This document shows positions 9,661 to 64,000 of a DNA stretch of 64,000 nucleotides, one piece after another. The number at the start of each line of letters is the position of its first letter. Positions within the stretch are counted from its first letter, which is position 1. A model generated the notes under the pieces. That model was not told the origin of the DNA. It saw only the letters and a program-made list of their open reading frames with translations, and searched no databases. Both the position numbers and the translations under genes were made by a program. Origin of the DNA: an uncultured Methanosarcinales archaeon. Lineage in GTDB: Archaea > Nanobdellota > Nanobdellia > Woesearchaeales > ARS49. The stretch spans positions 127,340 through 191,339 of the forward strand of contig CAZWVL010000001.1 of NCBI GenBank assembly GCA_964637115.1, read 5' to 3'.

Positions 9661-9795
9661 GCAGTACAAGTCAGGTATCTAAGATACCTCCCCCTTGGTT
9701 ACTATTGCTAAGTTACTAATACTGGAGCGCCATTTATAAAGTTTTCCTAGTCTGAGCAATAGATTTAAATACCCAAACTTCTTACATTTATTTGA

Positions 9796-13336: not shown

Positions 13337-13675
13337 ATGAACAAAATAATCTTAGGACTAACGGCCAGAGTAGTGCTCTTTGGCAAAAATGGAAAAAAAG
13401 AAGTGATTGCAAGAGTTGACACAGGAGCAACAAAGAGCAGCATAGACCGAGATTTAGCAAAGGAACTTGACTTGGGGCCTACATTAACGCATACGAGAAT
13501 AAAAAGCGCGCACGGCACAAGATACAGGCCTGTCGTGACTTCCGATGTGCTTATTGGTGGTCAGATGATACACGCAGAATTCAACATCGCAGAAAGAGAA
13601 CACATGAAATACAAAGTACTAATAGGACAGAACATTTTAAAAAAGGGCTTCCTGATAGACCCGAGCAAACCATGA
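13337..13675 (+). CDS. RimK-associated retropepsin-like protease
   Basis: ARVDTGA catalytic motif and C-terminal VLIGQNIL; overlaps the rimK-like start. Confidence 0.8.
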   Translation: MNKIILGLTARVVLFGKNGKKEVIARVDTGATKSSIDRDLAKELDLGPTLTHTRIKSAHGTRYRPVVTSDVLIGGQMIHAEFNIAEREHMKYKVLIGQNILKKGFLIDPSKP

Positions 13676-26126: not shown

Positions 26127-27076
26127 AACTTGAAGACCGTTCTATAGGAAGTTTTGTCGGAGGCGTAATAGGCGATGCATTCGGCATGCCAACCGAAGGA
26201 ATTGGTCCGGCAGGATTGCTGGAAAACTATGGCGGCTGCGTGTGCGATTTCGTTGACCCTGTAGCTCCACATCCAAATGGACATCTTAAAGCGGGTCAGT
26301 ACACTGACGATGGACAGCAAATGATAGCACTTGCTGAGACATTAGTAAATTGCAAGCGCTTCGACATCCACGATTTTGGCAAGCGCATCGCTGTGTGGGG
26401 AAAAAGAAACCTCACAGAGCCTGGTTACGAGCGCTTTCCAGGAGCAACCAGCATGTCTGCAGCTTATTCCTTGGAACAGGGTATAAGCCCATTTAAATCA
26501 GGAAGCACAAGCACGACAAGCTGCGGATCTGCAATGCGCGCAGGACCAATCGGCATTTATTTCCACAAAAACATCGATGACGTCACAAAATACGCACATC
26601 TATCAAGCGTTCCCACACATAATACTCAAGCGTGCAAAGAAGGCGCGGCAGTTGTCGCACTAACAGTTGCACATTTATTGCGCGATGAAAATCCTTTGGC
26701 TGCAGTACGCAAAGTAATTGAAACCGTTAATCATCCGGAATTGCGGAAGCAATGCGAAATGGCTTACGAACTCAGAGAAGCACAGCCAAAGTTAGTTGCT
26801 GACAAAATAGGCACGTCTGCAAGTGTGCTCGATACAGTGCCATTCGCACTTTACAGCTTCCTTCATTCTCCAAACGATTTTCTACAAGTAATGATAACTG
26901 CTGCAAACGCAGTTCCTGGCGACACAGACAGCTTTGGATGCATAGCGGGCAAGTTTGCAGGAGCGCATCTTGGTCTTAGCGCAATTCCAGAGCGTTTGCA
27001 AACAAGGCTTGAAGACGGGCTGAAAATAAGGGAACTTGCACTGCAACTCTACAAGTCTGCAGAAAGATTTGGATGA
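26123..27076 (+). CDS. ADP-ribosylglycohydrolase (DraG/ARH family)
   Basis: GDAFGMPTE, GQYTDDGQ, SCGSAMRAGP, PGDTDSFGCIAG. Confidence 0.92.
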   Translation: MKLEDRSIGSFVGGVIGDAFGMPTEGIGPAGLLENYGGCVCDFVDPVAPHPNGHLKAGQYTDDGQQMIALAETLVNCKRFDIHDFGKRIAVWGKRNLTEPGYERFPGATSMSAAYSLEQGISPFKSGSTSTTSCGSAMRAGPIGIYFHKNIDDVTKYAHLSSVPTHNTQACKEGAAVVALTVAHLLRDENPLAAVRKVIETVNHPELRKQCEMAYELREAQPKLVADKIGTSASVLDTVPFALYSFLHSPNDFLQVMITAANAVPGDTDSFGCIAGKFAGAHLGLSAIPERLQTRLEDGLKIRELALQLYKSAERFG

Positions 27077-27506: not shown

Positions 27507-30500
27507 TTATAATGATTGCGAAGCCGATTTAAGTTTCCTGAGATTTTCCTTCAAGCGCGCAAGACGCTTGCTAAAATCATCATCTTTTGCGGAAACTTTC
27601 GGTTTTGGCCTGCGAGGACGGAATGCGAATGCCAGGCCAATAAGTACAAGAGAGATGATTGCAAATCCGGCAATTGGCATTCGAAGATCCCTAATATCCT
27701 CTATGAAGCGGCCGGCAATTTCCGGCAGCTTTCCTGACTCCGGAGTGTAACTCCACGTCTTCAGATCAACAATAACCACTTCATCACCCTCAACAACATA
27801 AAAGTCAACGTTAAACATGTGCTGGCCGGGCTCAGAGACATCCGTGATAATATTATCTGGCATGCGCTCATGCTTTGCAAACTCGATATCGGGCTCACTC
27901 GGCCCTGCTCCTTCTTTGAAACCACGCCATCTTCCCTTTTCGAAAATTTCCTTTTTGAAATTATGTCCGTGCCAGGTGCCAATCGGCTTTTTTGCCGGAG
28001 AAATAGCACTCTTTCGCAATTCCGAGCTGTGATGATACGCACAATTATCACCCACACAATCAGGCTTTACGTCTATAAGTCCATCCTCGGTCCAAATGCC
28101 ACCGCGCTCGGTCTCAAAGTCATTCAAATCATCCACAATTATTTTTCCAACACTATTTTTAAATTCAGGAGAAGATAACATAGTTAACTCGAGATAAATA
28201 CGGTATAGATTGACCACAGAAAGCTTGGATTTGGCATCTTCCCACGACTGTGAAACTGGAGGCAAGTCATACAACGTACGATCTACCGAAGGTTTATTTT
28301 TGAGGATATCGTCAATTTTTTCTGTCAATGAAGTACGGTCCAGCTCCTTTGCGTCAACCCTGAAGAGCAATGGAAGGTCGCGTGTAAGATCCACCTGTTC
28401 TCCCAGGTCCTTTAGTTTTTTGATTGTTTCCAGAGCTCTGTTTACTTCTGTCATTGTAACATCTTTGAAAGCTATAATAGAATACGCGGAAGGATAGAAT
28501 CCTGCGTCAGCAAGTGCGGCGAAAACAGGTGAAATTTGTTTAATACTGGACACGAGAGCAGATGCCATTAGCTCCTGTGCATCGGCATCAGTTTCTTTCA
28601 GGAAAGCATCGTGAAGAATCTTTACGGTTGGGTCATCCCGGAAATATTGAAGCAAAAGAGCAGCTCTGCCACGAACAGCAGAATCTGAATCTTCCAAAAG
28701 TTTCAAAAGAGTATCGACAGAACCCTTAACCTTCTCACCAGGAAGTGATGTGCTGTCCATTGCTTTAAGGGCGGCCTCACGTACCTTTGGATCTGCATCC
28801 TCAAACAGAGGAATGACATTATTTCCTAATTCATCAAGGACTTTCCCATTATCGGAGATAACTCGTGCAGCCGCTGCACGAACTTCAGGAACAGAGTCTT
28901 TCAAGCCAGCAAGGATGATTTCTTTTGCCTGATCAGTCCATATCGGAAGTCCGGCTGCTTTATACATTGACGCGCCCAGTGCCCGCAATACGCTATACCT
29001 GACTTGCTGATCAGAATCTTTTGACATCTCAACAATCCGGTTCATGTTAAATTCAATGTTGTTCAATGCTTCCAAGGCACCAGTCCTGATTGCCGGATCG
29101 CTATTCTGGAGCGCCTGTTTAAGCAGTTCAACATTTTGCTGGCCTCCAAGAGCTGCAATAACATATCTATGAAGTTTAGGATCCTTCAACCATTCAAGCC
29201 AGGATGAATCTGCCTTTACATTGATCAGTACAAGTGCTGCGCGCACTTTTACAGATGAACTTGTATCTTGAAGAAGTGCTTTTATTGCAAGTTCACGTGC
29301 GGTTTTAACAATTGACGCATCCTGACTATTGATAAAGGCTCTAAGATTTAAAACTGCAGTTGCGCGGATTTTTTCATTTGAGTTCTGCATTGCTTGTACA
29401 AGCAAGTCCAGCGCTTCTTTGGAGTCTAAAAGACTCATAAGTGCAGAAAAGGCAGCGTTTCGTAAATCATTATCGGGACTTGTGGTTTTCTCCATCAGAA
29501 TCTTGCGTGCTTCCTTGACCTTAAGTATGCCAAGTGCATCTGCGGCAGCAGCCTCTGCAGCAGAAACACCACTCTCGAGCAAACGCAGCAAGCCAGGCGC
29601 TGCCTGCTTCTTGACCTCGTCCAGTTCTGCAGGCTCAAGCGTATTTGCAGTTTCTCTAATAAAGTCTGCCGCCTTGTACCTGACATATTCATTTTCATCA
29701 TCAACAAGCTTTGCAACAGTAAGCACAATTTTTTTTGTTGGCTCAACTATTGTGAGGCTTTTAACCGCTTCAACACGGACTGCACTATGGACGTCTTTCA
29801 AACGCTTAAGCATCTCAGGAACAACATTTTGAACATTGCGGGCTCTCAACAATTTCAATGCAGCCTTGCGAACACGGAAGTCCTTATCTTCAAGTTGTTC
29901 AACAAGCTCGTCGTCATCCGGCAAAATGCTTCCTAAATTAACACCCTTTACATCACGCTCGCTTCCGTCTTTATTGAATATGATCAATTTCAACTGCTGG
30001 CCTGTGTCAGCACTAAAGAATTGGTCAACTTCCTTCTGAGACATTGCTCCTCTGTCCAACAGAGCACTCATAGTTTCCCGCTGTTCAACAGGCCCGCGCC
30101 CAGGTTCACCTGGCCCTCTTGACATTAGCGAACAGCCGGCTATGGTGCAGAAGGTTACAAGCACCATTCCTGCCTTTGCAACCCGGCTTGCCTGCTCAGC
30201 AAACCAGTCCTTGAAACCCTGAGTTTCCGGAACTGTTTCCCTGACAATATCGCTTTCGAGTTTTACTGGAGCTTCTTCAGGCACTTCAGCGGGTGCAACT
30301 TCGGCTGGCAGTTCTTCCTTTACAGGCTCTTCAATTTTCGCAGGCATTTCAACCGGCATTGCAGGCGCTTCTGCCGGCGGGGCAGCAGGAACTTCAACCT
30401 TTGGAGCAGGCCTTAATTTGCTTACAATTTTACTACCAACCGGCTTAATCAACATTTCCCACCAGAAGAATGGATTCAGAACCGAGGTAACGTCAAACAG

Positions 30501-60500: not shown

Positions 60501-63500
60501 GAGCGCTTGACTTCCAGTAATGGACGACCTGAACTTTACTGCAGCAGATCTTTCAGGAGCAGTTGGAGGCTTGTCAAGAGCTTCTACTTTGCCATCTTCC
60601 GCTTGAGCATCTTCAGGACCGCGGCAGGTCTGCAAACAACCAAGATCTGCAGCATCGCACTTTGCCACACACTCCATAACTGGTGCATTTCCTGCACACG
60701 TTTCGCTCGCGAACTTCTTAAAGTCAGGAAGAACTTTCATCAAAGCGCCATTTTCACGAGCTGAAGATTCCTGCTCTCCCTTGAACTGCAACGCTGCAGC
60801 AATTCCATCCCGCACGCACTTTGCAGCCTTCGGCTTCACGCAACAGCACTCCTTTGGCTTAGGTCCGCCGCCACCAGGACCCTCCGCGCACTTGTCATTA
60901 GGCACGCAAGTAGGCTCTTCATAGAAGTTTTTATCACATTCCTTCTTGCAATTATCAGAAAACTTACCATTCTCACATTCGTTCTTGAACTGCTTCATGA
61001 AAGGAAGCTCAACTCCCTTTGGCGGCTTTGCCCCGAAAAGTGAAGTCTTCTTTCTCTTGCACTGGCAGCACTCTTTCTCTGCCAATTTACATTTTGGATG
61101 ACCAGATTCAACAATCTCAGCAGTGCCTCCAACACACCACGCTGCAATACCTGCATCCGCCATTGCTTTTTGCGTTTTGCAAGTTGCCTCGTCCAACGGA
61201 TCAAAGAAGAATATAGTCTTTTTATCCTTCTCGCAATAAACGCAGCAAGGCTTCTCAGGTATAGGAGTCTCACAAGGAGTTAGAGTTGGGCATGGCACCT
61301 TCGTCGGACAGGGCTTTTTCTTCTTTTTACAATTTGGATCTTCAGGGGTAGTGATTACGGGAGTTTCACCTGGCTTGCACGGTGAGGCTTGCGAGCCTTT
61401 GCATTTCGCAATCGGCGCGTCTGGAACTGGAACCCAAGTGACTTTTTTATTTTTCGTACAATAAATACAGCATCTTCCACCCGGTGTTGATGTTGGTGTT
61501 GGCGTTGGAGTATCTCCAGTCACAGTAGTAGGTGGAGGCGGCGGAGGCGGAGGTGGCTGCTGTGGAGGAGGAGGCGGAGGAGGTGGAGGCGGAGGTGGCG
61601 GGCACTCATCAGATGGAGTAGGACAAGGGCACTCTTTTGAAGTTGAAGTACTTGATCCTCCTGATGATCCGGCGCCGGGAATGTTAGGACCTGAAGCCAC
61701 ATTAGGACCTGTTGGCGGCATCGGGCCTTGCGACGGTCCCTCAAATTCTAATCCAAACATTCCACTGATTAAAGCGCCAGTTGTTTTGGAAACTTCAGGA
61801 GGAAGGCACTCAAAACTTCTAGGACTTGCGTCCCTCAATGTAAACGCGTCACGCTCGCTCGTCTCATCGCACATTAAGTCGTCACATTTTGGACCGTTTG
61901 CATAACTGGCACGGCGTTCCCTCGGTTCAAAGCACGTCGATTCATTACGAAGATACGCCACGTTCAAATCAGGTCTGACTTGTGCCAAATCAATGCTTGG
62001 AATCACCTGCTGCTTTCTAATCGGCGTATCGGCAGCATAAATAATTCCATTAACGTGAATGCTGGTCTTGTCAACAGCACCCTTAGCATCACCAACATTC
62101 AAATAATCAGTATCAGCAATCTTGACACCAGCGCCATCCCATCTGAACAATGCAACAGTGTTAACATCAATCTTAGCGTTTAAAGGAATGCTGCCATTGA
62201 AAATCTCTCTCATCACAGAAACATTACTTCCGGACTTGTTCGTAAGTGCAGCATCAGCATTATCATCATACATTTTCTCATACGCAGCGGCATCAACAGC
62301 AATCACATAATGTCCTTTTGGACCCAACACGCTGCCATTCGGGAATGCTGCAATCCAATAACCATCAGCAAGCGCGGCAGGGGAAATCGTTTGAGTCTTG
62401 TTGATAGAAATCAAGTAGTAGGAATAATTCACGGGAGACTGAGAAATGTTAGTGCTATTCGGCTTATTGGTAATGTAATAATCGTGAAGGTTAACTGGCT
62501 CGCTTCCAGGGTTGAAAATTTCGACAAAGGCAGAAGCCTTCAAATCCTGAAGACGCGCTTCAAGCTCTTCAGCAGAAACCCGCTTAGTCGCTTCAAATGT
62601 TGCAAGACCAACACGGGGCAGTGACCTGACTCCCAGCGCATTATGCACGACAGCCTGGCCAACACTAAGTCCTGCACCAGCGCCGCCGCCCAACCCTGCA
62701 TGAGTTGCAATAATGTCAAACGTGTTTAGGAGAAGAACACTTTTATCGACGACATCTTCAAACGACTTGAGTTGAGACAAGTTAACTGACTGGCCTTCAA
62801 TAAGCATAACACCGAAAACTGCTGCAATGATAAGCATTGCCACAAAGCCTTTCTTTCCCTTCTTGCGCGACATGAAATAAAGCATTACGAGCAGCAATAT
62901 CAGCGCCAAAATCCACGGCCATAGAGACGAATCAGCTTCCTTAATGGATGAAGGAAGTTCAACAGACGGCGCTGCACCTACAAAAAGCGGAGGAGAAATC
63001 TGGCTGATGATAATTCCATCGTGAGGTTCATCCGGCATTTCTGGCCGAGCAGCAGGCGGCTGTGCTGGGAACTCTTCTGCAGGAACTTCGCACGCTTTTA
63101 TGCAATCCAACATTTCCTGCGGTTGATCCTTGCACTCTTCCATCGCACGAGCTTTAGCATCAGCACCACTTGTTGCGTCACCAAGCGCACGATCAACACA
63201 ACTGGACGGAGAAGCTTTACACTTTCGCATGCAACCAAGATCAATCGGATCGCAAACAGCCACACAAGAAAGAACATTTTCCTGGCCAGCGCATGATTCT
63301 TCGACAAACTTCTTAGCATCCATCGTGATTTTAACAGAACCGCCAGCCTCTGCCTCACCCTTAACTTTCAACATCGCGTTAATGCCTTCACCAACACACA
63401 CGGCAGGCGAGTCTCCTGATTGATCAGATGAACTTTCAGTCGGAACAACTGGAGGCCGATCAAGAGTTGGCTTGCGAGCACGCTTCTTACAATCCTGCGC

Positions 63501-63998
63501 GCACAAAGTCGGATCATCAGCATTCGAACAACCAAAGACACAACCCTCATAATTGAAATCAATTAATTTTTCACCAGGACTTGCAATAACGCTGCCAGTA
63601 ACAACATCATACTTCACACCAACATCACTAGAAACTTCAACAGGAGCGACTGTAGGCGACACTTCTTCAGACTGCCCGTGTGCAGCAGCACACTCCTGCA
63701 TACAATCGCCCAATCCAGGCGGACCTTCGCCAGGTGGAATATCTTCAGGCGGATACTCTTCCGGAGGAGGCTCAGTGCACGCAGGATGATCTTCTTCCTT
63801 GCACACTCCGCCTTTGTCAACACATTTTTCTTTTTCAGATTCTTCTTCACCTTGTCCTTGCGGTGATTGTCCTCCGCCTGCTCCAGCGTCCTGACCAATC
63901 TGCTGAGGAGCACCCTGCTGGAAAACACCACCCTGACCAATTTGTTGAGGAGCACCCTGCTGGAAAACACCACCCTGACCAATTTGTTGAGGAGCACC
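27507..63998 (-). CDS. Giant multidomain membrane-anchored protein, at least 12,163 aa, 5'-truncated by the window edge
   Basis: The ORF-track frame (27507-63806) stays open upstream to 63998 (GAPQQIGQGGVFQQ...EKCVDKGGVCKEED); many coherent domain motifs are in frame. Confidence 0.93.
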   Translation of the reverse strand, partial: GAPQQIGQGGVFQQGAPQQIGQGGVFQQGAPQQIGQDAGAGGGQSPQGQGEEESEKEKCVDKGGVCKEEDHPACTEPPPEEYPPEDIPPGEGPPGLGDCMQECAAAHGQSEEVSPTVAPVEVSSDVGVKYDVVTGSVIASPGEKLIDFNYEGCVFGCSNADDPTLCAQDCKKRARKPTLDRPPVVPTESSSDQSGDSPAVCVGEGINAMLKVKGEAEAGGSVKITMDAKKFVEESCAGQENVLSCVAVCDPIDLGCMRKCKASPSSCVDRALGDATSGADAKARAMEECKDQPQEMLDCIKACEVPAEEFPAQPPAARPEMPDEPHDGIIISQISPPLFVGAAPSVELPSSIKEADSSLWPWILALILLLVMLYFMSRKKGKKGFVAMLIIAAVFGVMLIEGQSVNLSQLKSFEDVVDKSVLLLNTFDIIATHAGLGGGAGAGLSVGQAVVHNALGVRSLPRVGLATFEATKRVSAEELEARLQDLKASAFVEIFNPGSEPVNLHDYYITNKPNSTNISQSPVNYSYYLISINKTQTISPAALADGYWIAAFPNGSVLGPKGHYVIAVDAAAYEKMYDDNADAALTNKSGSNVSVMREIFNGSIPLNAKIDVNTVALFRWDGAGVKIADTDYLNVGDAKGAVDKTSIHVNGIIYAADTPIRKQQVIPSIDLAQVRPDLNVAYLRNESTCFEPRERRASYANGPKCDDLMCDETSERDAFTLRDASPRSFECLPPEVSKTTGALISGMFGLEFEGPSQGPMPPTGPNVASGPNIPGAGSSGGSSTSTSKECPCPTPSDECPPPPPPPPPPPPPQQPPPPPPPPPTTVTGDTPTPTPTSTPGGRCCIYCTKNKKVTWVPVPDAPIAKCKGSQASPCKPGETPVITTPEDPNCKKKKKPCPTKVPCPTLTPCETPIPEKPCCVYCEKDKKTIFFFDPLDEATCKTQKAMADAGIAAWCVGGTAEIVESGHPKCKLAEKECCQCKRKKTSLFGAKPPKGVELPFMKQFKNECENGKFSDNCKKECDKNFYEEPTCVPNDKCAEGPGGGGPKPKECCCVKPKAAKCVRDGIAAALQFKGEQESSARENGALMKVLPDFKKFASETCAGNAPVMECVAKCDAADLGCLQTCRGPEDAQAEDGKVEALDKPPTAPERSAAVKFRSSITGSQALNVESMMKQASQDVEPESKGPPAECEKKARERAESMKDRVEAEAGKPGIVKSEVAVDKLIAEECTGEPMQEEECDEQAPESSAEEKPEEKSENEDGGEKEEKKEPGKCVKEGGKPEKPDHPACAGGPEEGLPEEGPEEVPSGLGDCMQECAAAHGQPVKESPVGLTRTVYDYGTPVPSPAGLTRTVYDYGTPVTSPAGLTRTVYDYGTPVPSSVGLTRSVYDYGTPVPSPAGLTRSVYDYGPYTTPVEQSIVPTVTISEEQNCVDRALSFALGDATSGVDAKMRAFEECKDQPYEMLDCIQACEIPEEAAPEETPPPTPSPTLEPKTHLGIIISQVSPPLEAVLAPSIEKPTAVTAESSNMWPLILALVLLLVMLYFVLRKKGKKGFVAMLIIAAVFGVILIEGQSVDQFKSLEDSADDSVLIPGVSDVISTQVGLAGGAGAGIVAGQAAAQNMRGEEAQPRFALGTAEATAKLSAEELEARLQELKAAAFVEIFNPDDESIKLDYFYITNKPNSTNISLSPENYSYYLISVNKSRTISPSALADGYWIAAFPENTTLAPHTHYVIALDADAYEKVYEEKPNATLTNKSVTNVSVMRELFNGSIPVNANIDSNTIAIFRWHNGTIKILDIDYLNLGNAQSAVDKSGVRISGIIYGKDTPIEKQQVLPTVNLAQIRKGVNVAYNRDPATCIEPRERRAADANGPECEEGACDETSERDAFTLKDAVPRTFECIPADQTLVGGVVISLEAGSTVTGPITGSDEYEDCPTPTPCATPTPCKTPVSPPPPPPPPPPPPPPPGIPSVDKCCCQGGTKAGMIMTGVACKTGTATGESVPANFGECDKAGGKPTTDLTKCLATPTPSAEKCCCTSGPNKGKIMEGAACKTGTATGQNVPADWGACGGATPNLNDPACAGGPTPTPTQAPCCCIGKDGKAEWKGADYCSEKKAEPGKTVVAGQLDSDCKKAGGKVDKTGAACTPSKGCCICRITSTTTKPLFGISQKQGEKKMHFKCDAKGPTQQCKDACKKIAGSSLFRTECVENEKCKEECSDCPESGHGGQPKLPNEHKGLELKPPLYTDGLPPQQPEQPGDPPKKQCCCVKTKEKEDKAEQDKKNVLAAFEKITGRQIQDADEMPECEKKARERAAGMKGQVETEGGKEGVLEAEVDIDAVIQEECIGEPMQDEECDGMKPESPQGKGKGKATGRITGWQALDKLQEQAQRGKDKKEPGKCKKEGGSPERADHPACAGQAMPGGAPGVPTCPEGFVPVQVPSDGGFEPNEPLQQPTQPTPPPEEPHMGFIISQVSPPLFASPALEMPLEASKQKLRFGILGFLLAALIAIIALVIFRTLYSREDKGKRIIGLFMMFLIVSLSYAPAVVEGQSVDRYEGSVVALAGSNYPTWLLPVAKPQYKSFEDVADKSVLLPDAGDVIGTQSGLGGGASAGLGIGQAIAQKLLGIVPQPQVGLGTAGVIAQSDQDIGKHLDELRTSAFIELYNPEDKPLNLSTYYITNKPVSVQEIEGSEPENFYYYLITVNTSQTISPSALAEGYWIASFPNNSIVAPNEHYVIAINASAYEQVYDDKPNATLVRDAGIPLMIEIFDGSIPQNAKIDSNTIALFKWDGKSKKVEDTDYLNVGDAQSAVDKTDVEVEGEKYGADTPVKKQQVLPEVDVASIRPDVNVAYNRDPKTCVEPRERRAADANGPECEGGACDETSERDAFGLKDAEPRVFECANVPLKTGVTGGAALNMDVVMKKLLDSRALAAAQSALSQPHLLTDAASAGFNAGRESAEDAEEESSDVLCVPAGAPSPCVSEGIDKARQASAEIADTYRTAERSVKLLPDFKTSAMDACKDDSQSLDCLSQCDSADLGCLSGCGAEPQTLDQLADRPEITEKVRIDDRDSAVGVKYAKEVRRLYSEADEHGQAMVSPEAFVSRITGGHVAETAPNSVTGAIAAEFSNVITGLQAAPAAPVAPKLPAPPSQWKNSGLDMSRGGEAVNPGMDSGKIDVKPAKGNLPAQEADYEKFDHPVGPAEVLNEIYSNANRKGSNWEATKNFWRHFEDNVGWAKAEEDSCIDKGKADEAMAHATAAMKSAEKILDGIAPFLDGDLKMAVDKMFKSDEQRAEEKSNADKAKKNWEDQFKDPKTGKFPEGFDPAKAARDAIQEFEKTGYGLEQAGSAAEYLGAQGVGDYGAGPTAFDAQVGAAQQALSGTTGNSNTANSAVNAIASEPLVKTYNDAIDNYNKWKDTPRAGEFKNKVDEAKSALQEKDPGLLNKYEKAKADADAAQKAKNDAEKNLKDAEKKQKEEQDKEKNDPNRLDKFDPKKSAQNFANKARKLASMGFVPEKVCLGSPPMDEVNALLNMAGAQADDAVKQANAAKTPMDILKAYDSAMISLVWLENAHYKYIEYKDNVVHLIRAGFNDEKCCPKRKDVGHVKQGKKKPTPTPEKPKKPTGLADVATPGHTTEGMKVPTGTGPGGIPQQAGTQGVATGQSGTGPTTGAILDITGLAVGQTQVAPAKPAAPASPGTPQDPCDPCFYNDKPYYEPEKKPEPSHVDWPPAPDFGKPPKLPGGQSGSTTPSAGKPTVPAPTVPNVTNPAVNPCAGSKYDMRKIGKDYKIVDRATGKEIDTSKLTGADKDNYDNALKHNCFKRSTVAQEAAPKQKNPCDDVIRQYGAQPFKPIDKDKALSESVEDSPFQPNKFDQNAANKLMDDFKNCNKEIKKTGEEFKKVDDQRNELLGRRRMSMEGGPRTLDGVPLEGQTRADGGIDFQNAITKEFHTSLSSADVDQLEAFNKQSADLIDTYKAHTENLDLAGTQKHYDNLVQTLPNYKDQLKNLPKDAPNRAGDVRRLEDEIKIREEAITKDAELLKKIPEWQAKNLCNTKDIVKKLQAEYGKAGLEMNADTGKITSADKSATYKGMTPDGTPIFEKGGKEFINTPEGMKPMSRWANDKGETSDKPIAGGYLEQYDPKTGRYIKKNVIDVSKIPPELLPCYKSKMEKAGEDYVKKAIADLKKLQELELEKNRLEKEKNALEGKDKDSRTADENKRLEDTKKELEDIDKKIKDIKDNTGIDSAFKDGGAKLNRLQDEYAETAKKRDERLKQLIDEGKTAGKTDEQIKEDIKNDSKYNNLQKDLDDLSKKIKDALDPSNLNLDYRKKLADLTINQGIIDADKVPDANHAGKLQMLQNAVDEAARLLGVKFDGARITPNDEFTQQYKDHMRKVLNEIIVGEGATERINGIAGAMNNMKMLSVNDANIDKMTFENNMKDALKVALNSQPMEFFDKYKTFEERVGELYNRQVAAFEEYVKNGGIPGVVAFDPQTGKTVVQWDGVRADDVLKAMKAKTYDFLSEQFKNQINQNGWKVRYDEEGNMLLTDNSGEPVILKKGDVLEVGKLSELKLTKIANAQTKGKTFAAQAKKDDALTADLKAKLKDKDWHFASDIDWDEAYKNRHALPDDVAIEFMMLYEAVKGDRAKLAKEASSKTLAAVKDKFTREYIRYGDINWDEAYKNRYELSDDTRAEVERLYEEYKGSLLLGSKKASSKTLAEVGRKFPKVTYVPVGTSLTADKIKVIKNLEAEQQLANLVEDTLNLFNRELRDAAQGKTTAFRAIDNVAARMFALRKFDPKLFESLQAALKVQDLALRKEVNEELNNLLDLQVAHLMGKKVPSTVVQAQQRQYNNARAIRAIADPTLARQYMDEAEVSLITARDDLLDAMKLHKSVSTKITQGSLTMAQKNYQKAQEEYRTFYPIAHPYLDANVADGYALRDISEHANYLIDELKRTGGKLAQQAANAIAQTVTRQFFDENGKPTTDLRPPKISDYLTEQDYANALTAWALRAGAYANTFTDINVANKDEYLRGNSIGVARYKIDGILSDGAKEFEAELAKHLKNAGLLGKFASAEGNTVAQKLENAGKGLSAVDRYRMKNLLTTDFPFKANFDSQGRYTEDFWDGILNTGTMIDVGLMIVSGGVAGAVSKVVRVTMVAAKWGQGAIKVGTFVANAAVFHVTNNLLQAGKVSLAEGRSFAAVLQDQIDEGHWGARAFIMSAAMMAGSTGMSPLQSSLRKAFAKGLGKNFGVKVAFALNLMIESGAFSLFELGTASQEQRDKMDASHIAQSFIKNLLTFGALKATHGWVDKASRPLDEMARQIEARRLGPKYEAMGKEFQSARNNFEQNKFDGKSAEGLRGKIESAQRDLVNRVKAGEISPEQFRAASGELARMDSELGRMSGEAKIGKIVEDAAKRLNKDPSQLTNADYTTRERAEIFNARRQSLDAQESALNRQQNMLDSNAPNYETAKNQINAQRFEINYQRAGINLAEASGEVQRISDNYKAHETARESQQRADAAAKEAGFDNAEQLRRSELEKSQNVKDAQKEADRLRAEGKADAAREAQREADRLSRDYNEFLAKNADALKAGEQAGESMKKVIDEQVGQRTDEINRLSKDAEALRREGKNEEADRLEAEIREKLSKLDRFLKEPEVVLKEELSAAEKTLSSAREEALRAERLRDFNTLIWMSSLDGYYKELEASGELDELSAASLRNELAARMKVEDAMREARKIEEWSFMNSDALKAQSEDLASHREILAKDLAEINRQAKERLISAKDAEAQRRAYTREIKQLSNLQNVLDGKLRSALELGGVKSLAELATKAKMLEARNAPEASAVRKLYEEAYLLKNSLKNLGLERERLLRTREQFFSKEVVDSAVKESQKDIENRLNEAAAKIEGKELVEAAKVSLYEAGLRASPEMRVEMEAGKIHAADKVYETLRQINELTTAGKLTEANVLRDELRTRGFGEKEIDALLKLPKGKDAVVDRDAVVDRINKDAAVQLEKLGVEKTNIERMRDGVETGRKMYEAFKGASPDQIKSAVDKASKPVVGKDGKPVLGSDGKPVREVDAKKLGEELMKIPEIASKPNAAELVKKLQTYLERVYSEVAKSKGVKGEEGRKPRADQVETIINAIVKEGVLIQAPTGFGKTATFTPDRILWDVLFGKGAHLNIQTEAQKRSALYKDIKGFVERVLGEGSVREFSLTEIDAKTGKMKDRDLTESDLEAARDAKVLITDFATIQRVTSASLFGATFKELSIADRMMSALKKRAGLIDEIQKIAEATDLIRTLATEKLSASVDGLAKIKASGDVLKLLESKGFKIGDEFAANNKKVIEDLLKTNGDKAAELNKEVAELRKRGLEADAKDLESAARELAREPNDLFNEFKDSALKDFASELSKILGKEVTVDALKKGFGDLKQYKELLGELKDVLKDESLKKGYETIVDAAGNVKEVRPMQERAVAQEGMSFGDVNRHIIIETLVKGAGAKASLGELEITTKSAKSNMKDFLREFGKYTALTATQKLVEGALRGSTGLETILLESGALRWVSPEMLRDAIKAEFGEKVADAFKFDAQRADARLKAGEGPNARENLGLEGRIKVLDNVKSYIEDGFRKGGLDSYIYAAGKGYADAVRIGREALESRVLEGTAKEGDFLLVRTPKEVGGKYLLSEVVKTAEGKLEIKTTEVDPKRVVLEKGLKGRNGAVITNEIEGLDLKTTQSRDIDANAAFKSRLERGEVGAEFGETRFKVIVDKSTSLTDVEQALGRKRNVGDSIEVGSLDASINDVKSLLKSALRREAAGIKEYTERSDLQDLDQVVRGGFSRAIKSELARAERGEISREDAMRNIKGLQDQLIRYDQFTSAKEPSLDSAYGQKTVDRMKSEIERRAKYVQDNLLNSPEIQQLGEAGKDIFKDLGSYDAKPVALSDAAPFKSGKSLLEAKNFREFKEILEDVRSKDSYNEFSKGDTPINNAVKRIVEVETRKIDSLKADAAQARESAVKNTEALESARDKLTNALDNFATAQENLAKAVTAEERASYAAQVDVAALQVEGAQIEVEQSNLALQQDRVRADVTEFMINVVQAAAINPQELGTLGMDAAKEAFIANVRAKAAESEVNYESLKFDVLSSLADNGDIDLKQELVKLQGAAQADDSLQLALPAYEAASQSPEYLEIANLLKSAGVQTTSQLRSLISQRVSEGKLDEAAGLQSQLSGIESSLRAQQQKILEARQAAIEKAGDAAIAQSKLNGVKTAIEHLKEMQELYAPEEAAKPAVPEKVVEPAVARKPVLPGIAEEPFYKRTTSEQDVRAAISDILIQEVRAENAVRDVLKKANVLYDPAMEGVVKQIINSYIQQGLWDATVLDEALSALALSADARRAILSETFDAIRKSDQLPSAIKSSLSAVDKYIKEQIRSENKNLLDQIKDVKKREIALDNMFKAQRAERVAMLVANAEMASIGARSERIGSTEISGINSPEKEVSGGDARLTFTFTGSDGKARVLIINGDGKGHSIEASLLKSIPADIIRKITADYKSTDKAVSDSARDLLEHPEKLTALIASETRKYYKSGDFMTFSATVLNPETGKAEIVTAGEVVLIVRANGDMELVRSKYPGTIDGILPLGLPKPFTVEKPVEIELGKGDLLIHLTDGLYEQYRGEEQYDFIFKRDAEGQVMYDANGNHILNPESDTISIIRAGVQNGWTAEQIRDAVLRGTRDFAQDAPRDDDITLTIVKVAEPAPVIRSDILPPEGTELVSPAGIFRRSAEGQEVFGALEAIIDADPVKLQEMRKMRQLADLPTDGLDAEVAVGLAGSAAQSAINPYPSDIDFAALIRLRGSPEKAYANFATMLQRYVRGLQGRKDVIFEVLDLGSDSTGKKKIKWTFEEVLAGEKIVEGRKITLVQAAREQMASEIARGGRVLWKIDLVALYDGRYKPMSIVLNTAVEDPATNAIEIADPRTLPINALQQVYFTRGEADLVADTVLRTQGRYSYLDKSLREKYSNIMREEIEKYAEVGDPHENYFKVLKRLYKKSVAEGDLETARTLTQAYSTFFSRLNEVADELETLGIALEKGLPVDINIVRAQLEGHLKELTISGTDTPQVGADVARARVIEALSKLDDPKAAGAILKPLKEELLKTMSAEAREFLRSRPEIYSIVEQILRTPMTRNLYFGVKPSRIVISQDILSDLESYVSDTFDINAPEGLHMTEFFVGKINELNERLAKDFGPSVRLSPQDIDALLGLVRERVEKIKAGVVTFSGLDILGTSVVAKASPEITRQINTAIFESVEQLLKDKGVDIEKNREAVKKIFDFSTPETYKPHLSVAEYDSKVLSKNNFMDLWAKFQQRHGTNNPLAVSEIIGAMESGYKEGKTPAELETEARRVIDIFEFTRGHSNVQVGSAEFDSVDLLKSTGAGPVAIGEIGLEGAATKELEQTTVSSPERYEKTVIRKKGEVVREQLEESRTEAPALADETERHEDEMLQKALGEMVTAEPEVAKKPLLPEVEEAPEKVFTTEELESRIAKHLQRKDLSGDPQRTLDDMLAEIADVETFGRMFTQDEMYELARRKAEALMSAKQPGDQLPAEGLTRKMFDDMLFKANRRARRIPQAIDELNEKYPGYSKVYLGRDGHIMLVTDKSMNPDTDVHAAYVSRDTLGGFDGPHWTLIEKILDRLADEVGYGNYDRFKEAFFREIEDLLRTNPEFRAKFAEVHKYLYNYLQTSGAAKSGKIVFVDTCCRSIPLYLEAVLKVGSRLIPELAGKGQELDIGAFFYSSNFRDPRVVFSKESGVAETVLEGAIEDVKFDESSTADKPLYRNGNDVGLVETLINKLAVHNAIIQQKLYYVGTPADLTLIAIKMLKEGPLDERTLASLDYAFEHLEPVQRAAYGKDIQNVLREKILEEMRSIKRWLTTKKQLEKLVDAEYNKLLADARGARQSYEARILGAPVTPLPVPITGRRTLGSALGEAMLETTRIAPIFFLGIDIPIRIIVSAMGKRAEVMRLDELAEGSRVILTQKNGVTEDVVVLGLDKDGDLIIRRPDGSEATRYMSQLKTFELVKIGKGPKITAIPKVVTEPPVAKKPLLPEIEMLKEGEPYLKVDLPHVKVVEGAARLGAMGDVQGNYQVARKAMHRAGFIDANDNWNTGPENRNGKAVFVFDGDIVDAGEDAHGAAEFIRKLQAQAEASGGKVIVVRGNHEQMLLDALEQADKGVTYEYAGNSWWMQGGKATAFSFVLAKMRKDKGAQKGSPQEQDIITQLKSMPDEQLFAMFHEHMRKNKEGQEYVKFFEGLPFAVRVNNVIFVHGSPDFSAKSMEDLGKTSESQHRMMWGRYWDTLGKDIKAMEEKIRAIKQLFDKSQANAALSRIISDVDDMYVSEDFKNVIKDKVVDVINRLKRTGVDDKESHNALADELHALAVSVEGFLTGQINEFKINMGGNIIVTGHTPHGVIKGGQSEGLLDYDRGLFGINFIPRAAKEGDAQGILVFGTEGVQIKFGEELVHGENRDKKFTDEDTLKKDREKKIAELEAKTPAIEKPSPAVSVEQAAKLLSTPRSVTKQQPGSPRYYQMKKIVFALMRNNLAYLTDKYDELPVSKQEVEAFVKKYPNGLTEKDKDGILKRLPLQKRGEYSKSMDQLNELLLPKPVAKEVPAAPPVMAPKIDTLEDFINSYTALKTLPPKGTMQDFVNYLRRNGAQLDAYKKVFSEDEIRKLARKKLEQLIKEYPDDADLQELKDPEKLEHHLDFLFWKLPISMNDVPASEAELDEKLPGYAKVYLLRDSAPLIQARGALKPEEEVFAAYISRGNINELYHSLFDYMLKLAEENKKDSVNLREQVFKKVAELVKTNPKIAKEVNDAYAQLEKSGVLKQDKIVFIDWCCLRIPPIAEAIIRLKNPNIKTASFFYGSNLNDPAIMYSGDKGAAVQDIEDFLSPVESDNAGTSREPLFEPAKGETQLQSFITELFLHNAIVKYRESHPAAPRVAEPPVTKKELPKETPLAKIFREFDVDEELDPSGAEENFKKMILPALEKEKFEVEGRSYGLGEIIKFTNGYEAAVYGNGHIFITKTPEGVDSHIDLTKYAPELADKIFVSIDFYDIANIASLANIWPKLRKAEIPRGALEVYKSTYRNAQLDLEMKTDKLELPEVIQTLAKMKTGQRELIQILSVPTEFLSINVDNVIRPENLDRFVNADPELVKVYLKELSKNLETGIGTWMVYNAQNILMTDAAFIQRYVSLLGQLKNEFLFKQHMISALRYVDPAARNWFLEEVNKGTFTVFDAEILTEETLAGIIRMGYGKPAVVGTELPTNVFVAIVNKAIPLEQRTRIASAPSLELFEKTHPDVVSDTLDSLIAIAASPKIFAFTSRFIRIFAQLSPESQRQIILFVDRTNVRTARNTLREIEKIQKAPLAGQRLEDIIKGGIDENTFISLMRARIGGRPEVFEQAARRPYEQQPNEVIPVKEWKAAFERIFSPLERIVMEGPMSEEILRQLKLKKQQIMDLFDIRGAELERAYEKDLTRILESSGDVHERAQRQAELITEFMEKLEGVDSGLSAQGIEPPFNVHLERDMILGYKYERAREFLTGQKRKFGTLYVSRKSMGDDNYERTKELLKKTEKTMKGENIDTPEGFARFKKEFFRLVAEEIGKNPEFRKSAEVTWGVIEQSGLLQQKKLRFLDTCCAGTIPLYLEALLAYKKTSIETSSLLGVADYTQITLPVSLGELEADEFFPVVHASPREYKLTDVESMLREYMIELVLLNSAVEKELKHRAKDRMYYVYSGQLETLNHKSVVGADGRHYDVIETPEVDIELPKDVQEESAGLLKLSKEINAENVEAYIVSTDPDTGKLSVQGSVKPRYVIRIDPELVVHNPGVTIWISEARAFINSLIAYQNAVQAKVGVEETKKALRAAFEAILRVNPDALVLFDTTQSLAIGGILESSEFDILETVEAVVSHSTAEDMPVFRERVKDEIETMQSRLRSLAVTKAYDESSAKVAEGKMSEAEKLAAVTKAIDDVPVLQPVEVHLSQAPVLDPSDVETMSTITVKLPDGTMRETQVSINVFEEAGKIKTSFIFGEKTPLTTGEIDTISVAIKLNTPRARTEALLKVGQSAPRYYQAKKILLSLLFGNLGFMTSKYDESHQISPAIVQQFINKYPGGITEGDLQIILNKVIPQKHGEYRRAMELLNDLVLPSAMPAEETESEPPMPEKPVAVKPGVKLFDVTSVLNPFFWWEMLIKPVGSKIVSKLRPAPKVEVPAAPPAEAPAMPVEMPAKIEEPVKEELPAEVAPAEVPEEAPVKLESDIVRETVPETQGFKDWFAEQASRVAKAGMVLVTFCTIAGCSLMSRGPGEPGRGPVEQRETMSALLDRGAMSQKEVDQFFSADTGQQLKLIIFNKDGSERDVKGVNLGSILPDDDELVEQLEDKDFRVRKAALKLLRARNVQNVVPEMLKRLKDVHSAVRVEAVKSLTIVEPTKKIVLTVAKLVDDENEYVRYKAADFIRETANTLEPAELDEVKKQAAPGLLRLLESGVSAAEAAAADALGILKVKEARKILMEKTTSPDNDLRNAAFSALMSLLDSKEALDLLVQAMQNSNEKIRATAVLNLRAFINSQDASIVKTARELAIKALLQDTSSSVKVRAALVLINVKADSSWLEWLKDPKLHRYVIAALGGQQNVELLKQALQNSDPAIRTGALEALNNIEFNMNRIVEMSKDSDQQVRYSVLRALGASMYKAAGLPIWTDQAKEIILAGLKDSVPEVRAAAARVISDNGKVLDELGNNVIPLFEDADPKVREAALKAMDSTSLPGEKVKGSVDTLLKLLEDSDSAVRGRAALLLQYFRDDPTVKILHDAFLKETDADAQELMASALVSSIKQISPVFAALADAGFYPSAYSIIAFKDVTMTEVNRALETIKKLKDLGEQVDLTRDLPLLFRVDAKELDRTSLTEKIDDILKNKPSVDRTLYDLPPVSQSWEDAKSKLSVVNLYRIYLELTMLSSPEFKNSVGKIIVDDLNDFETERGGIWTEDGLIDVKPDCVGDNCAYHHSSELRKSAISPAKKPIGTWHGHNFKKEIFEKGRWRGFKEGAGPSEPDIEFAKHERMPDNIITDVSEPGQHMFNVDFYVVEGDEVVIVDLKTWSYTPESGKLPEIAGRFIEDIRDLRMPIAGFAIISLVLIGLAFAFRPRRPKPKVSAKDDDFSKRLARLKENLRKLKSASQSL
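27560..27700 (-). other. C-terminal TM anchor and basic tail of the giant protein
   Basis: MPIAGFAIISLVLIGLAFAF followed by RPRRPKPK. Confidence 0.8.
27770..28150 (-). other. JAB/MPN metallopeptidase-like domain (giant protein)
   Basis: ETERGG...IGTWHGH...GPSEPD matches the JAMM E / HxH / SxxD arrangement, with an insertion. Confidence 0.65.
28520..29900 (-). repeat. HEAT/PBS-lyase-like repeat array (giant protein)
   Basis: Recurring LxDxDxxVRxxA units (LEDKDFRVRKAA, LKDVHSAVRVEA, VDDENEYVRYKA, FEDADPKVREAA, LEDSDSAVRGRA). Confidence 0.9.
31840..32520 (-). other. D-x-C-C domain, copy 3 (giant protein)
   Basis: NVHLERD...LYVSRKSM...FLDTCCAGTIPLYLEALL. Confidence 0.6.
34230..34870 (-). other. 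D-x-C-C domain, copy 2 (giant protein)
   Basis: KVYLLRD...AAYISRGNI...FIDWCCLRIPPIAEAII. Confidence 0.6.
35650..36800 (-). other. PPP/calcineurin-like metallophosphoesterase domain (giant protein)
   Basis: GDVQG, DGDIVDAG, RGNHE, VHGS, TGHTP. Confidence 0.85.
37600..38300 (-). other. D-x-C-C domain, copy 1 (giant protein)
   Basis: KVYLGRD...AAYVSRDTL...FVDTCCRSIPLYLEAVL. Confidence 0.6.
39900..40740 (-). other. Pol-beta-superfamily nucleotidyltransferase-like domain (giant protein)
   Basis: GLAGS...PSDIDF (hG[GS]...DxD) and a third Asp in WKIDLV. Confidence 0.65.
40890..41660 (-). other. PP2C/SpoIIE-type phosphatase domain (giant protein)
   Basis: SGGD, NGDGKGHS, TFSATVLN, LPLGL, GDLLIHLTDGLYE, DDDIT. 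Confidence 0.88.
43750..45720 (-). other. SecA-like / SF2 ATPase domain (giant protein)
   Basis: Q-motif PRADQ, Walker A QAPTGFGKT, GAHLNIQT (SecA Ia-like), LIDEIQ, ALTAT, EQALGRKRNVGD (motif VI). Confidence 0.75.
48170..48670 (-). other. Gly/Ala-rich hydrophobic segment (possible membrane-inserting region)
   Basis: IDVGLMIVSGGVAGAV...VGTFVANAAVFHV...FIMSAAMMAGS...VAFALNLMIESGAFSLF. Confidence 0.6.
49880..50220 (-). repeat. 60-codon tandem duplication (DWDEAYKNR...ASSKTLA) in the giant-protein stalk
   Basis: Identical 23-mer CTGTTCTTGTACGCCTCATCCCA at 49996 and 50176, 180 nt apart. Confidence 0.85.
55330..56545 (-). repeat. TM hairpin + lamin-tail-like domain, unit 3
   Basis: Two TM helices...VVEGQSV; FIELYNPEDKPLNLSTYYIT. 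Confidence 0.75.
58310..59425 (-). repeat. TM hairpin + lamin-tail-like domain, unit 2
   Basis: WPLILALVLLLVMLYFVLRKKGKKGFVAMLIIAAVFGVILIEGQSV; FVEIFNPDDESIKLDYFYIT. Confidence 0.8.
59782..60023 (-). repeat. Five 51-nt in-frame tandem repeats encoding SPxGLTRxVYDYGTPVP
   Basis: CCATAATCATACACAG recurs at 59782, 59833, 59884, 59935 and 59986. Confidence 0.95.
61840..62925 (-). repeat. TM hairpin + lamin-tail-like domain, unit 1
   Basis: WPWILALILLLVMLYFMSRKKGKKGFVAMLIIAAVFGVMLIEGQSV; FVEIFNPGSEPVNLHDYYIT. Confidence 0.8.
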
Positions 63999-64000
63999 CT
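63890..64000 (-). repeat. 42-nt in-frame tandem repeat encoding GAPQQIGQGGVFQQ, running off the window edge
   Basis: Two near-identical full units plus a partial third. Confidence 0.9.

Follow-up and report, generated by a model that had tools for sequence, protein, structure and literature searches.

The 64,000-nucleotide stretch of woesearchaeal DNA analysed here (the window, G000:C1:127340-191339, where G000 is the source genome) carries a giant gene whose product, of approximately 1.4 MDa, is a member of a hypervariable class of candidate host-contact proteins found across its order. Most of the chain forms a zone (27678..51155, aa 4282-12107) that is nearly free of both N-glycosylation sites (sequons) and cysteine, in which all the ATPase-, phosphatase- and HEAT-type domains are found. 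Such a bare zone fits an exported chain that must stay unmodified. Throughout, features of the giant are given as window positions on the minus strand, and amino acids (aa) are numbered from window nucleotide 63998.

A zone nearly free of sequons and cysteines

Sequons were defined as N-[^P]-[ST] and their numbers compared with 2,000 shuffles. Residues 4151-12107 of the giant contain a single sequon where 29.8 are expected (Poisson 5e-12); the lowest count among the shuffles was 12, and no sequon occurs past aa 4281. No other open reading frame (ORF) of at least 600 aa in the genome comes near this depletion. Composition or deamidation can be ruled out as the cause, because the reversed and neighbouring control motifs occur in the zone at about the expected numbers ([ST]xN, 25 observed for 29.8 expected; Qx[ST], 24 for 29.2; Dx[ST], 46 for 52.6; Nx[AG], 46 for 48). 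A cytoplasmic N-glycosyltransferase is likewise ruled out by the genome-wide observed/expected ratio (O/E), which is 1.03. Cysteine makes up 2-6.6% of the first ~2,500 aa, and only 12 cysteines are found in the 8,107 residues from aa 4001 to aa 12107 (0.15% vs 1.3% genome-wide); aa 4151-12107 hold 12 versus ~105 expected, and 10 of these 12 stand in close pairs (CC or CxxxxC).

AglB/STT3 is encoded in all three genomes tested, namely G000 (two copies) and the relatives G015 and G017. To our knowledge, N-X-S/T is read by no machinery other than the oligosaccharyltransferase (OST), an enzyme with an outward-facing active site. On this ground, the depletion speaks for a zone that lies on the outer face and has to remain free of glycans. 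A limited literature search found no description of sequon-free zones in giant proteins.

Two other ORFs of G000 are both Cys-rich and depleted in sequons: one on contig C2 (+) from ~81214 (620 aa, no sequon vs 6.1 expected, 40 Cys) and one on contig C1 (+) from ~79856 (2,004 aa, 8 sequons vs 20.4 expected, 78 Cys). They suggest a wider class of exported, unglycosylated proteins.

The gene of the giant is real and native to its genome; it evolves under purifying selection and did not arise as an assembly chimera. The ORF listing shows a single frame (27507-63998) that encodes 12,163 aa followed by a stop codon, and whose 5' end is open since the end of the window is also the end of contig C1. 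The initial annotation had described an uninterrupted frame of at least 36.5 kb and had proposed to extend the contig to find its start: the frame indeed has no internal stop and the start lies on another contig, C6. Window positions 63944-63998 are identical to C6:1-55, within a tandem GAPQQIGQGGVFQQ repeat, and C6:2-2386 (-) prolongs the giant by 795 aa in the same repeat and the same frame. There, a GTG start codon is followed by a typical signal peptide (VGTVEKEKTVGAIAIVFTLLVLSISVVSA/EQSS or, as a fuller string, ...AIAIVFTLLVLSISVVSA/EQSS), then by PT/poly-Pro linkers and a Cys-rich domain. The break point is the Gln/Gly-rich tandem repeat itself (63891..63998, aa 1-36), which is also present on C6; the joined giant has at least 12,940 aa, with an uncertain number of repeat copies at the C1-C6 join. 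The adjacency of the two contigs is backed by synteny with G015.

Read-level evidence came from eight public sequencing runs of two studies, all from sediment or freshwater sediment. Each of the eight contains 93-98% of the sampled words, and none of the runs listed is an RNA data set. Contigs from four runs cover 44001-64000 with zero indels, and one of them, of 34,388 nt, spans 44001-58875 and extends past the 3' end of the gene, so that the 3' 31 kb are covered by a single contig. The segment from 58.9 to 64 kb is tiled by short unitigs only, because paralogous modules lie there. The variants listed in the giant comprise 17 synonymous and 4 nonsynonymous changes, and its G+C content at third codon positions is 0.44, for a genome range of 0.42 ± 0.05. 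One could suspect an assembly that is chimeric or collapsed, or else a pseudogene in decay that is still open by chance, from the 5 kb at the 5' end, which are repeat-rich, from the contig ending in a tandem repeat, and from an alternative joint seen at low depth in one run. However, the long open frame, the identical sequence found in all eight runs, the excess of synonymous variants, the presence of a giant at the syntenic position in G015 and of similar giants in four other genomes make such an artefact extremely improbable, and the search for a chimera suggested by the initial annotation found none. The joint itself (59202 -> 63877, with a 21-nt side) was taken as repeat cross-talk and not as an alternative structure.

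Surface modules, membrane topology and enzyme-like domains

The N-terminal surface part is rich in Cys, Pro and sequons and carries LTD domains, in line with the surface-type units first annotated. A Cys-rich acidic segment (62928..63890, aa 37-357), paralogous to aa 316-463 of the C6 N-terminal part and to aa 1005-1148, precedes the first of three LTD modules. The modules belong to three paralogous units (aa 326-760, 1501-1923 and 2457-2909; 38-65% identity), each composed of a conserved junction and an LTD-bearing domain, and the Cys-rich segments that precede them are also mutually paralogous. Module 1 (61719..62792, aa 403-760) has a Pfam LTD match at aa 488-593 and 10 sequons; module 2 (58230..59291, aa 1570-1923) is 65% identical to it and also has 10 sequons; module 3 (55272..56384, aa 2539-2909) has 5 sequons and an LTD match below the cut-off (aa 2650-2782, E 2e-5). 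Sequons are enriched 2.3-2.9-fold in these modules, which are presumably N-glycosylated and disulfide-bonded. A transitional region follows (51156..55271, aa 2910-4281), in which the last Cys cluster ends (aa 4150), the last two sequons are found (aa 3751 and 4281) and proline content falls.

Each junction is a transmembrane (TM) hairpin (junction 1, 62793..62927, aa 358-402; junction 2, 59292..59423, aa 1526-1569; junction 3, 56385..56537, aa 2488-2538). The three copies share the consensus SQ(I/V)SPPL - TM1 - basic loop - TM2 - (I/V)EG/QSV(N/D), where the loop has 8-13 residues (SRKKGKKG in junction 1, LRKKGKKG or RTLYSREDKGKR in the others) and the exit, EGQSV, is acidic; junction 1 leaves TM2 as IEG/QSV. 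The three hairpins resemble a C-terminal anchor joined to a fresh signal peptide (...IEG/QSV). Junction 1 also has a sub-threshold match to DUF4131, the N-terminal domain of ComEC (E 6e-7, 29.7 bits vs a cut-off of 31.6).

A scan of Kyte-Doolittle hydropathy (KD, threshold >= 1.9) detected, after the third hairpin, no segment before aa 12108 except one at aa 8937 that contains D and R, leaving ~9,600 residues with no convincing TM between the last hairpin and the C-terminal TM. The latter is the anchor of the initial annotation, found at aa 12108-12126 (27621..27677), and is followed by a basic tail that is predicted to be cytoplasmic (27510..27620, aa 12127-12163; RPRRPKPK...LRKLK) and has an analogue in G015. 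Sequon clusters sit just after each hairpin, the last one included (aa 2663-2744, then 3751 and 4281), and the sequons of module 3 by prediction place the chain outside after the last hairpin. The G015 giant has a similar predicted topology: four TMs with alternating basic loops, then sequons at aa 3776-4122, then none until a C-terminal TM and a basic tail. For both G000 and G015, four lines agree in predicting that the zone is outside: (i) an N-terminal signal or anchor, (ii) TMs that come in even numbers in each cluster, their basic loops being cytoplasmic, (iii) sequon clusters past the last group of TMs, with no further TM before the C-terminal anchor, and (iv) the basic tail. The sequon desert is a fifth, independent line. 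The enzyme-bearing zone is thus predicted to be extracytoplasmic, and we consider this probable. The opposite outcome, a topology that leaves every enzyme domain in the cytoplasm of the producer, had been envisaged at the outset; against it stand TM parity, the positive-inside rule, the post-hairpin sequons and the basic tail.

Several domains of the zone can be recognised, with very different degrees of support. A long helical stalk had been annotated; what is found is a stretch of residues (~aa 4100-6100) rich in helix formers, by composition only. The hydrophobic segment also annotated is present at aa 5100-5260 (48219..48701), where it is Gly/Ala-rich and carries small-xxx-small motifs, but its hydrophobicity is moderate (KD 1.4-1.5).

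Next comes a divergent ATPase of superfamily 2 (SF2) type (43599..45713, aa 6096-6800), with motifs I (TGFGKT, 6124), II (DEIQ, 6251), III (TAT, 6495), V (TNEIEGLD, 6683) and VI (QALGRKRN, 6738). When its core was run exhaustively with phmmer against 1.84 billion representative proteins, only three relatives came back, which precluded a deep alignment; the motifs are kept in all three, motif II being DEIH/DEAH in two. Aligned with these relatives, the ATPase gave nothing significant against PDB sequences and Pfam, motif I alone weakly matching DEAD/ResIII, and a locus search with the alignment found no relative in species-representative genomes. The AlphaFold2 model built on the shallow alignment has a mean pLDDT of 50: lobe 1 is below 50 and lobe 2 (60-87) is the sole usable part. 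The top 50 fold matches of lobe 2 are nearly all SF2 RecA2 domains (DinG at the top with Z 8.7, Rad5, Prp43, DHX36, HrpB). A helical insert of ~240 aa in this low-confidence model lies between motifs II and III, where the PPXD of SecA sits. Membership of the SF2 superfamily is supported by the ordered motifs I, II, III, V and VI and by the modelled RecA2 fold. However, the part of the initial annotation that pointed to SecA in particular is not supported: SecA chains tie with many helicases for lobe 2 (Z 7.5-7.8 vs 8.7 for the top match), and neither the giant's ATPase nor its relatives match the Pfam family SecA_DEAD, even at E up to 5.

The two phosphatases are recovered by Pfam above its cut-offs, as annotated. 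The PP2C/SpoIIE-type Ser/Thr phosphatase (PF07228; 40887..41591, aa 7470-7704) scores 58-62 bits for a cut-off of 25, covers positions 3-191/192 of the profile and has SpoIIE chains as best PDB sequence matches. The PPP/metallophosphoesterase (PF00149; 35505..36803, aa 9066-9498) scores 35-37.5 bits for a cut-off of 21.5, with Shewanella-type phosphatases as PDB matches. In the latter, GDVQG and GDIVDAG replace GDxHG and GDxxDRG (His->Gln, Arg->Ala), whereas neither GNHE nor GHT is altered; the copy in G017, at 44% identity, has the same substitutions. A HEAT repeat array is also found with Pfam (28554..29498, aa 11501-11815).

The Pol-beta nucleotidyltransferase (NTase) and JAB domains of the initial annotation show the corresponding motifs but no Pfam or PDB sequence support, and they stay leads. 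The putative NTase-like domain (GSAAQS...SDIDF; 39699..40886, aa 7705-8100) matches no Pfam or PDB profile; its motif GSAAQSAINPYPSDIDF, to be compared with the hG[GS]-x(9-13)-DhD pattern of these enzymes, is kept in its sole homologue, P0004, a bacterial hypothetical protein of 406 aa, and protein-language-model similarity to NTP_transf_2 clusters (0.86-0.87) is a weak lead. The putative JAB/MPN-like region next to the anchor (27678..28385, aa 11872-12107), which has no Pfam match, contains E11962, HGH at 12010-12012 and SEPD at 12034, with an HxH-to-SxxD spacing of 21 that is atypical compared with x(7-10); its language-model neighbours include Toxin-JAB1 (0.90), DUF4329 and Prok-JAB (0.88).

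Finally, an orphan domain of ~330 aa, here called 'CC', is present in three copies: copy 1 (37599..38738, aa 8421-8800; VYLxRD ... YVSR ... FxDxCC..IP), copy 2 (34227..35360, aa 9547-9924) and copy 3 (31860..32840, aa 10387-10713), the last being 35% identical to a copy in G017. VxLxRD, YxSR and FxDxCC...P...EA are invariant, and the vicinal Cys-Cys in FxD(T/W)CC..(I/L)P is kept in all four copies (the three of G000 and L013:14042-15334 (-)). A search of proteins of 209-667 aa gave no homologue. The model, made for copy 2, has a pLDDT of 59; its fold comes nearest to PRPP-dependent ribofuranosyltransferase modules (8a0c, Z 7.6; 7shg, Z 7.0) and then to phosphoribosyltransferases (Z 5-6), and ESM Atlas matches have TM scores below 0.5. 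Such a modelled resemblance is too weak for a fold name.

A class of giants and its closest known counterparts

Giants were sought in relatives by six-frame searches within the same family and via PP2C in other families of the order (301 genomes). The class consists of five giants of 8,000 to ~19,600 aa from at least four families of one order. The G015 giant (8,477 aa) has 107 sequons for 43 expected in aa 1-2000, which carry phosphodiesterase, NosD β-helix, FG-GAP and α/β-hydrolase domains, and none for 12.9 expected in aa 5001-8477, a zone in which no Pfam domains were found. In G017 (G017:C21:1802-60521, minus strand; L013-L015, L020; JAHFOI010000002.1), two frames of 7,529 and 12,040 aa are split by a 10-N scaffold gap alone and would make ~19.6k aa if they are one gene. 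This giant starts with a signal peptide and has 59 sequons for 18.6 expected in its first 1,000 aa, then 1 for 29.4 and, in the 12,040-aa frame, 0 for 76.2, i.e. 1 versus ~105 expected; its domains are a relative of the SF2 ATPase, three FHA, PPP, Pkinase, PP2C and one 'CC' domain. The G157 giant (11,421 aa; G157:C13:1924-36186, minus strand; L034-L036) has sequons in its C-terminal tail only and none for 52 expected in its zone, and carries PPP, M48 peptidase, ABC1 kinase, PP2C and RIO-like kinase domains. The G211 giant (7,993 aa) has no sequon-rich part, a single sequon for 39 expected, PPP, PP2C and at least 18 HEAT repeats. PPP, PP2C, kinases, FHA, HEAT and SF2 thus form a toolkit shared across the giants.

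The locus can be followed between genomes. The window from 2.7 to 24.5 kb is collinear with G015:C5 21.6-35.7 kb (29-81% identity), the giant comes next in the same orientation in both, and one C6 gene matches a gene beyond the G015 giant. A flanking class-II aminoacyl-tRNA synthetase (Asp/Lys/Asn type) is 79%, 65% and 56% identical to that of G000 in G001, G015 and G017, respectively. The G000 and G015 giants themselves give no BLAST hit below E 0.004, whereas the genes that flank them show 50-80% identity. In G001, of the same genus, a fragment has a PP2C that is 37.5% identical. Of 76 other genomes of the family, one was found to have the PPP/CC module; the 14 congeners, among them several that are 98-100% complete in 20-50 contigs, gave no match. 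In the two giants that are comparable by sequence, the order of the modules differs (PP2C, CC, PPP, CC, CC in G000; PPP, PP2C, CC in G017): the initial annotation had suggested looking for orthologues with the same scaffold in another cargo order, and G017 provides the same modules in another order, with kinase and FHA domains added. No homologue of the giant was found among proteins of 5,500-17,500 aa, the C-terminal 10,000 aa being the query and the words coming from aa 5964-10963. On these sequence comparisons the giant locus is positionally conserved yet hypervariable and patchily retained, the opposite of the invariant, housekeeping-like conservation that had been considered as a possible outcome. 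Unalignable products at a syntenic locus, shuffled modules and a patchy distribution would suit arms-race-like evolution.

Archaeal proteins of more than 10,000 aa are rare and come from metagenomes (10.1101/2023.11.21.568195). The closest archaeal kind is the SPEARE proteins of Nanohaloarchaeota, such as the one from Ca. Nanohaloarchaeum antarcticus (5,998 aa) and SVXNc_0300 (9,409 aa) (PMC6642349, PMC10266531), in which a signal peptide and a LamG/Ig ectodomain are followed by a TM and a cytoplasmic helicase/VirB4-like ATPase (PMC6642349; PMC10266531). Like these, the giant belongs to a DPANN episymbiont, has an N-terminal signal peptide, is mostly extracytoplasmic by prediction, has a TM near the C-terminus and a P-loop ATPase domain, and is strain-specific and variable; SPEARE proteins have also been proposed to function in host attachment and in transfer across the host envelope. 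Two defining SPEARE features are nevertheless absent: no Laminin_G or Ig Pfam family is found over the whole giant, which has LTD and Cys-rich modules joined by TM hairpins instead, and the ATPase lies ~5,300 aa before the C-terminal TM and not after it, only 37 residues following that TM. In addition, the giant carries PP2C, PPP, HEAT and 'CC' domains, and the proteome is neither acidic nor halophilic. A sequon- and Cys-free zone is not described for SPEARE.

In make-up, the closest counterparts are the 'Archaeovorin' giants of Omnitrophota, which have TMs, a domain annotated as SecA_DEAD, HEAT repeats predicted to be extracellular and Ser/Thr phosphatases (10.1101/2023.11.21.568195). Both are non-repetitive multi-enzyme giants of more than 10,000 aa from ultra-small host- or prey-dependent prokaryotes, with TMs, a fast-evolving divergent DEAD-type ATPase, HEAT repeats, a Ser/Thr phosphatase and cytoplasm-type domains predicted outside. 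The present giant differs in being archaeal, in lacking Pfam-detectable glycosyl transferases or hydrolases, methyltransferases, NUDIX and peptidase C39, and in having an ATPase with no SecA_DEAD Pfam match; a search of proteins of 5,500-17,500 aa brought up no homologous sequence. A limited literature search found no prior description of this woesearchaeal class.

Two groups of bacterial toxins also invite comparison. MARTX toxins are long secreted chains with tandem unrelated cargo enzymes, whose sets are shuffled between strains and could be released by a protease domain. The likeness is a functional analogy only: the cargo of the giants is tandem and shuffled, and the candidate protease domain could free it, but the giant is membrane-anchored, has no RTX-type repeats, type 1 secretion system or CPD protease, shows no homology to MARTX, and its translocation is putative. 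Polymorphic toxin systems, reportedly delineated by Zhang, Aravind and co-workers in 2012, involve surface or secreted giants with modular, shuffled enzymatic domains. The giants share such modularity, and the language-model lead to Toxin-JAB1 concerns the very last domain. However, the resemblance to a polymorphic toxin drawn in the initial annotation does not extend to membership, as a variable toxin at the C-terminus and its immunity gene are both missing: the giant ends in a TM and a basic tail, and the next gene, which is convergent, encodes an ADP-ribosylglycohydrolase and has no counterpart at the G015 locus.

Possible delivery, alternative readings and genomic setting

The probable export of the chain, the ban on glycans and near-ban on disulfides, the ATP-dependent enzymes of cytoplasmic type, the shuffled cargo, the arms-race-like divergence and the host-dependent lifestyle need a joint explanation, of which delivery is the simplest. 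In such a mechanism, the producer would move the zone to the outer face of its membrane, within reach of AglB, and selection would have removed every site that could be glycosylated or cross-linked; taken together, we regard these two steps as likely. The glycosylated distal modules would bind the partner cell first. The chain might then be unfolded and threaded across the partner's membrane, the step for which the zone would be kept bare, and the Gly/Ala-rich hydrophobic segment may help threading. The ATP-dependent and phospho-signalling domains could work only beyond that membrane, which is where ATP and their substrates are to be had, and would there rewire host phospho-signalling. The JAB-like domain by the anchor, or signal-peptidase-like cuts at EG/QSV, could release pieces. 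Transfer of the unfolded zone into a partner cell, where its enzymes would act, is in our judgement possible at somewhat less than an even chance. The initial proposal of a single-chain tether, motor and cargo device therefore gains support from the sequon and Cys data and agrees with the reads, the predicted topology and the orthologues, while delivery itself stays a tentative proposal. In its fullest form, it would describe a previously unrecognised single-chain delivery device in Woesearchaeota, and perhaps in other DPANN: a C-terminally anchored, Sec-exported giant that would thread into the cytoplasm of its host a bare zone of 8,000-19,000 residues, with its own SF2 motor and a shuffled kinase/FHA/PP2C/PPP cargo that reprogrammes host phospho-signalling. 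We consider this complete picture rather doubtful.

Several observations weigh against an exported and delivered zone. The topology is based on hydropathy, charge rules and sequon distribution. Every recognisable domain of the zone is classically cytoplasmic, which favours a cytoplasmic location. In G157, ~11,000 sequon-free residues are followed (aa 11250-11421) by a hydrophobic segment at aa 11250 with reversed charges (basic before, acidic after), a poly-Gly linker and a Cys-rich tail with 5 sequons in 31 residues, a layout at odds with that of the other giants; if this segment spans the membrane, the G157 zone would be cytoplasmic. G211 is sequon-free on either side of a multi-TM cluster whose parity is uncertain. 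Some domains may be pseudo-enzymes, because the PPP lacks a metal-binding His and the phosphate-binding Arg and motif II of the ATPase reads DEIQ. Finally, no translocation machinery was identified, and the hydrophobic segment is a weak one.

These points bear on three alternatives, whose probabilities are not exclusive since one of them, cleavage as a polyprotein, can be combined with any other reading. The giant could resemble SPEARE more closely, with the N-terminal third alone outside and, beyond a missed crossing (e.g. at aa 5100-5260), the ATPase, phosphatases and HEAT repeats in the cytoplasm of the producer, as a tethered signalling or secretion scaffold with the tail outwards. The cytoplasmic type of all the recognisable zone domains, the ectodomain-TM-cytoplasmic ATPase order of SPEARE giants (PMC6642349; PMC10266531) and the reversed charges and glycosylated tail of G157 would all suit this arrangement. 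However, cytoplasmic proteins of this genome do not avoid sequons (O/E 1.03), so that a 30-fold depletion would be left unexplained; moreover, the depletion starts ~800 aa ahead of the hydrophobic segment and persists on both sides of it, the segment itself is weakly hydrophobic and resembles a segment pair, and in G000 as in G015 the last TM is followed by a tail of strongly basic character. We find a cytoplasmic zone quite unlikely. Alternatively, the zone could be exported and never delivered: it would form a long outer fibre or a scaffold of symbiont-host contact, in which the domains bind, are pseudo-enzymes or use extracellular or periplasm-like substrates, and in which glycans or stray disulfides would upset the folding or tight packing of cytoplasm-derived domains. 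The same topology and sequon evidence applies here as to delivery; the non-canonical PPP motifs kept in G017 and the DEIQ of the ATPase, the surface and glycosylation genes that surround the locus, and the predicted extracellular position of the HEAT repeats of Omnitrophota giants (10.1101/2023.11.21.568195) are all in its favour. But if harm came from certain glycans alone, one would hardly expect sequons to be missing altogether from 8,000-19,000 aa. Ordinary archaeal exoenzymes tolerate glycans. In addition, ATP is absent outside cells, although SF2 motifs I, II, V and VI are kept, as are several kinases. We consider an exported but undelivered zone somewhat improbable.

The last alternative concerns the chain as a whole. 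Signal-peptidase-like cleavage after TM2 of each hairpin (...IEG/QSV) would yield four separately anchored surface proteins, the giant being only their precursor. The junction is conserved three times and looks like a C-terminal anchor plus a new signal peptide, with small residues at -1 and an aliphatic one at -3, and extracytoplasmic and cytoplasmic parts of SPEARE were found in different size fractions (PMC6642349). On the other hand, the motif is conserved within a duplicated module, so that conservation does not in itself demonstrate cleavage, and the G015 and G017 giants have no equivalent junction motif; we consider a polyprotein unlikely.

The ways in which DPANN archaea exploit their hosts have long been in question, and we know of no effector or delivery route for Woesearchaeota. 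The giants now provide a concrete, conserved class of candidate host-interaction proteins. The near-total lack of N-X-S/T and Cys is a simple and quantitative sequence signature, new here, which argues that a chain of cytoplasm-type ATP-dependent enzymes meets the outer glycosylation machinery. It may be applied to SPEARE and to the Omnitrophota giants, where apparently extracellular cytoplasmic domains were noted and left unexplained. If the giants are delivery devices, 'sequon deserts' would become a sequence-only marker for translocated archaeal effectors.

The giant is encoded in the metagenome-assembled genome, 1.27 Mb in size and 98% complete, of a freshwater-sediment woesearchaeote that is not halophilic (D+E 11.7%, K+R 12.4%). 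Ribosomal protein L31e, for which the control search gave signals in archaea alone, is present and marks the genome as archaeal; no SSU rRNA was found in it. Its locus is a cell-surface and glycosylation island, so called because of the adhesin, PMT, GT2 and epimerase genes upstream and the GT2 and membrane protein genes downstream. Directly upstream of the giant start and on the same minus strand lies a Cys-rich adhesin of 2,660 aa with at least 11 SpaA-type prealbumin-fold domains (G000:C6:2560-10539; L039:560-8539), which is enriched in sequons (50 observed vs 27 expected) and is probably co-expressed with the giant. It is followed by a protein-glycosylation island (G000:C6:10729-21549; L039:8729-19549) that encodes three PMT_2 mannosyltransferases, three family 2 (GT2) glycosyltransferases, an NAD-dependent epimerase, a PhyH-like dioxygenase and a cupredoxin-like protein. 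On the other side, the ADP-ribosylglycohydrolase convergent with the 3' end of the giant (PF03747, E 1e-66; window 26123-27076, plus strand) is missing from the syntenic G015 locus and could be an immunity-type or a regulatory enzyme; a DUF4013 membrane protein and a GT2 are also found downstream in the window. Two further genes of the window are a 907-aa ORF with no Pfam match (6946-9669, minus strand) and a RimK-type ATP-grasp ligase (13672-14745, plus strand), the latter being syntenic in G015.

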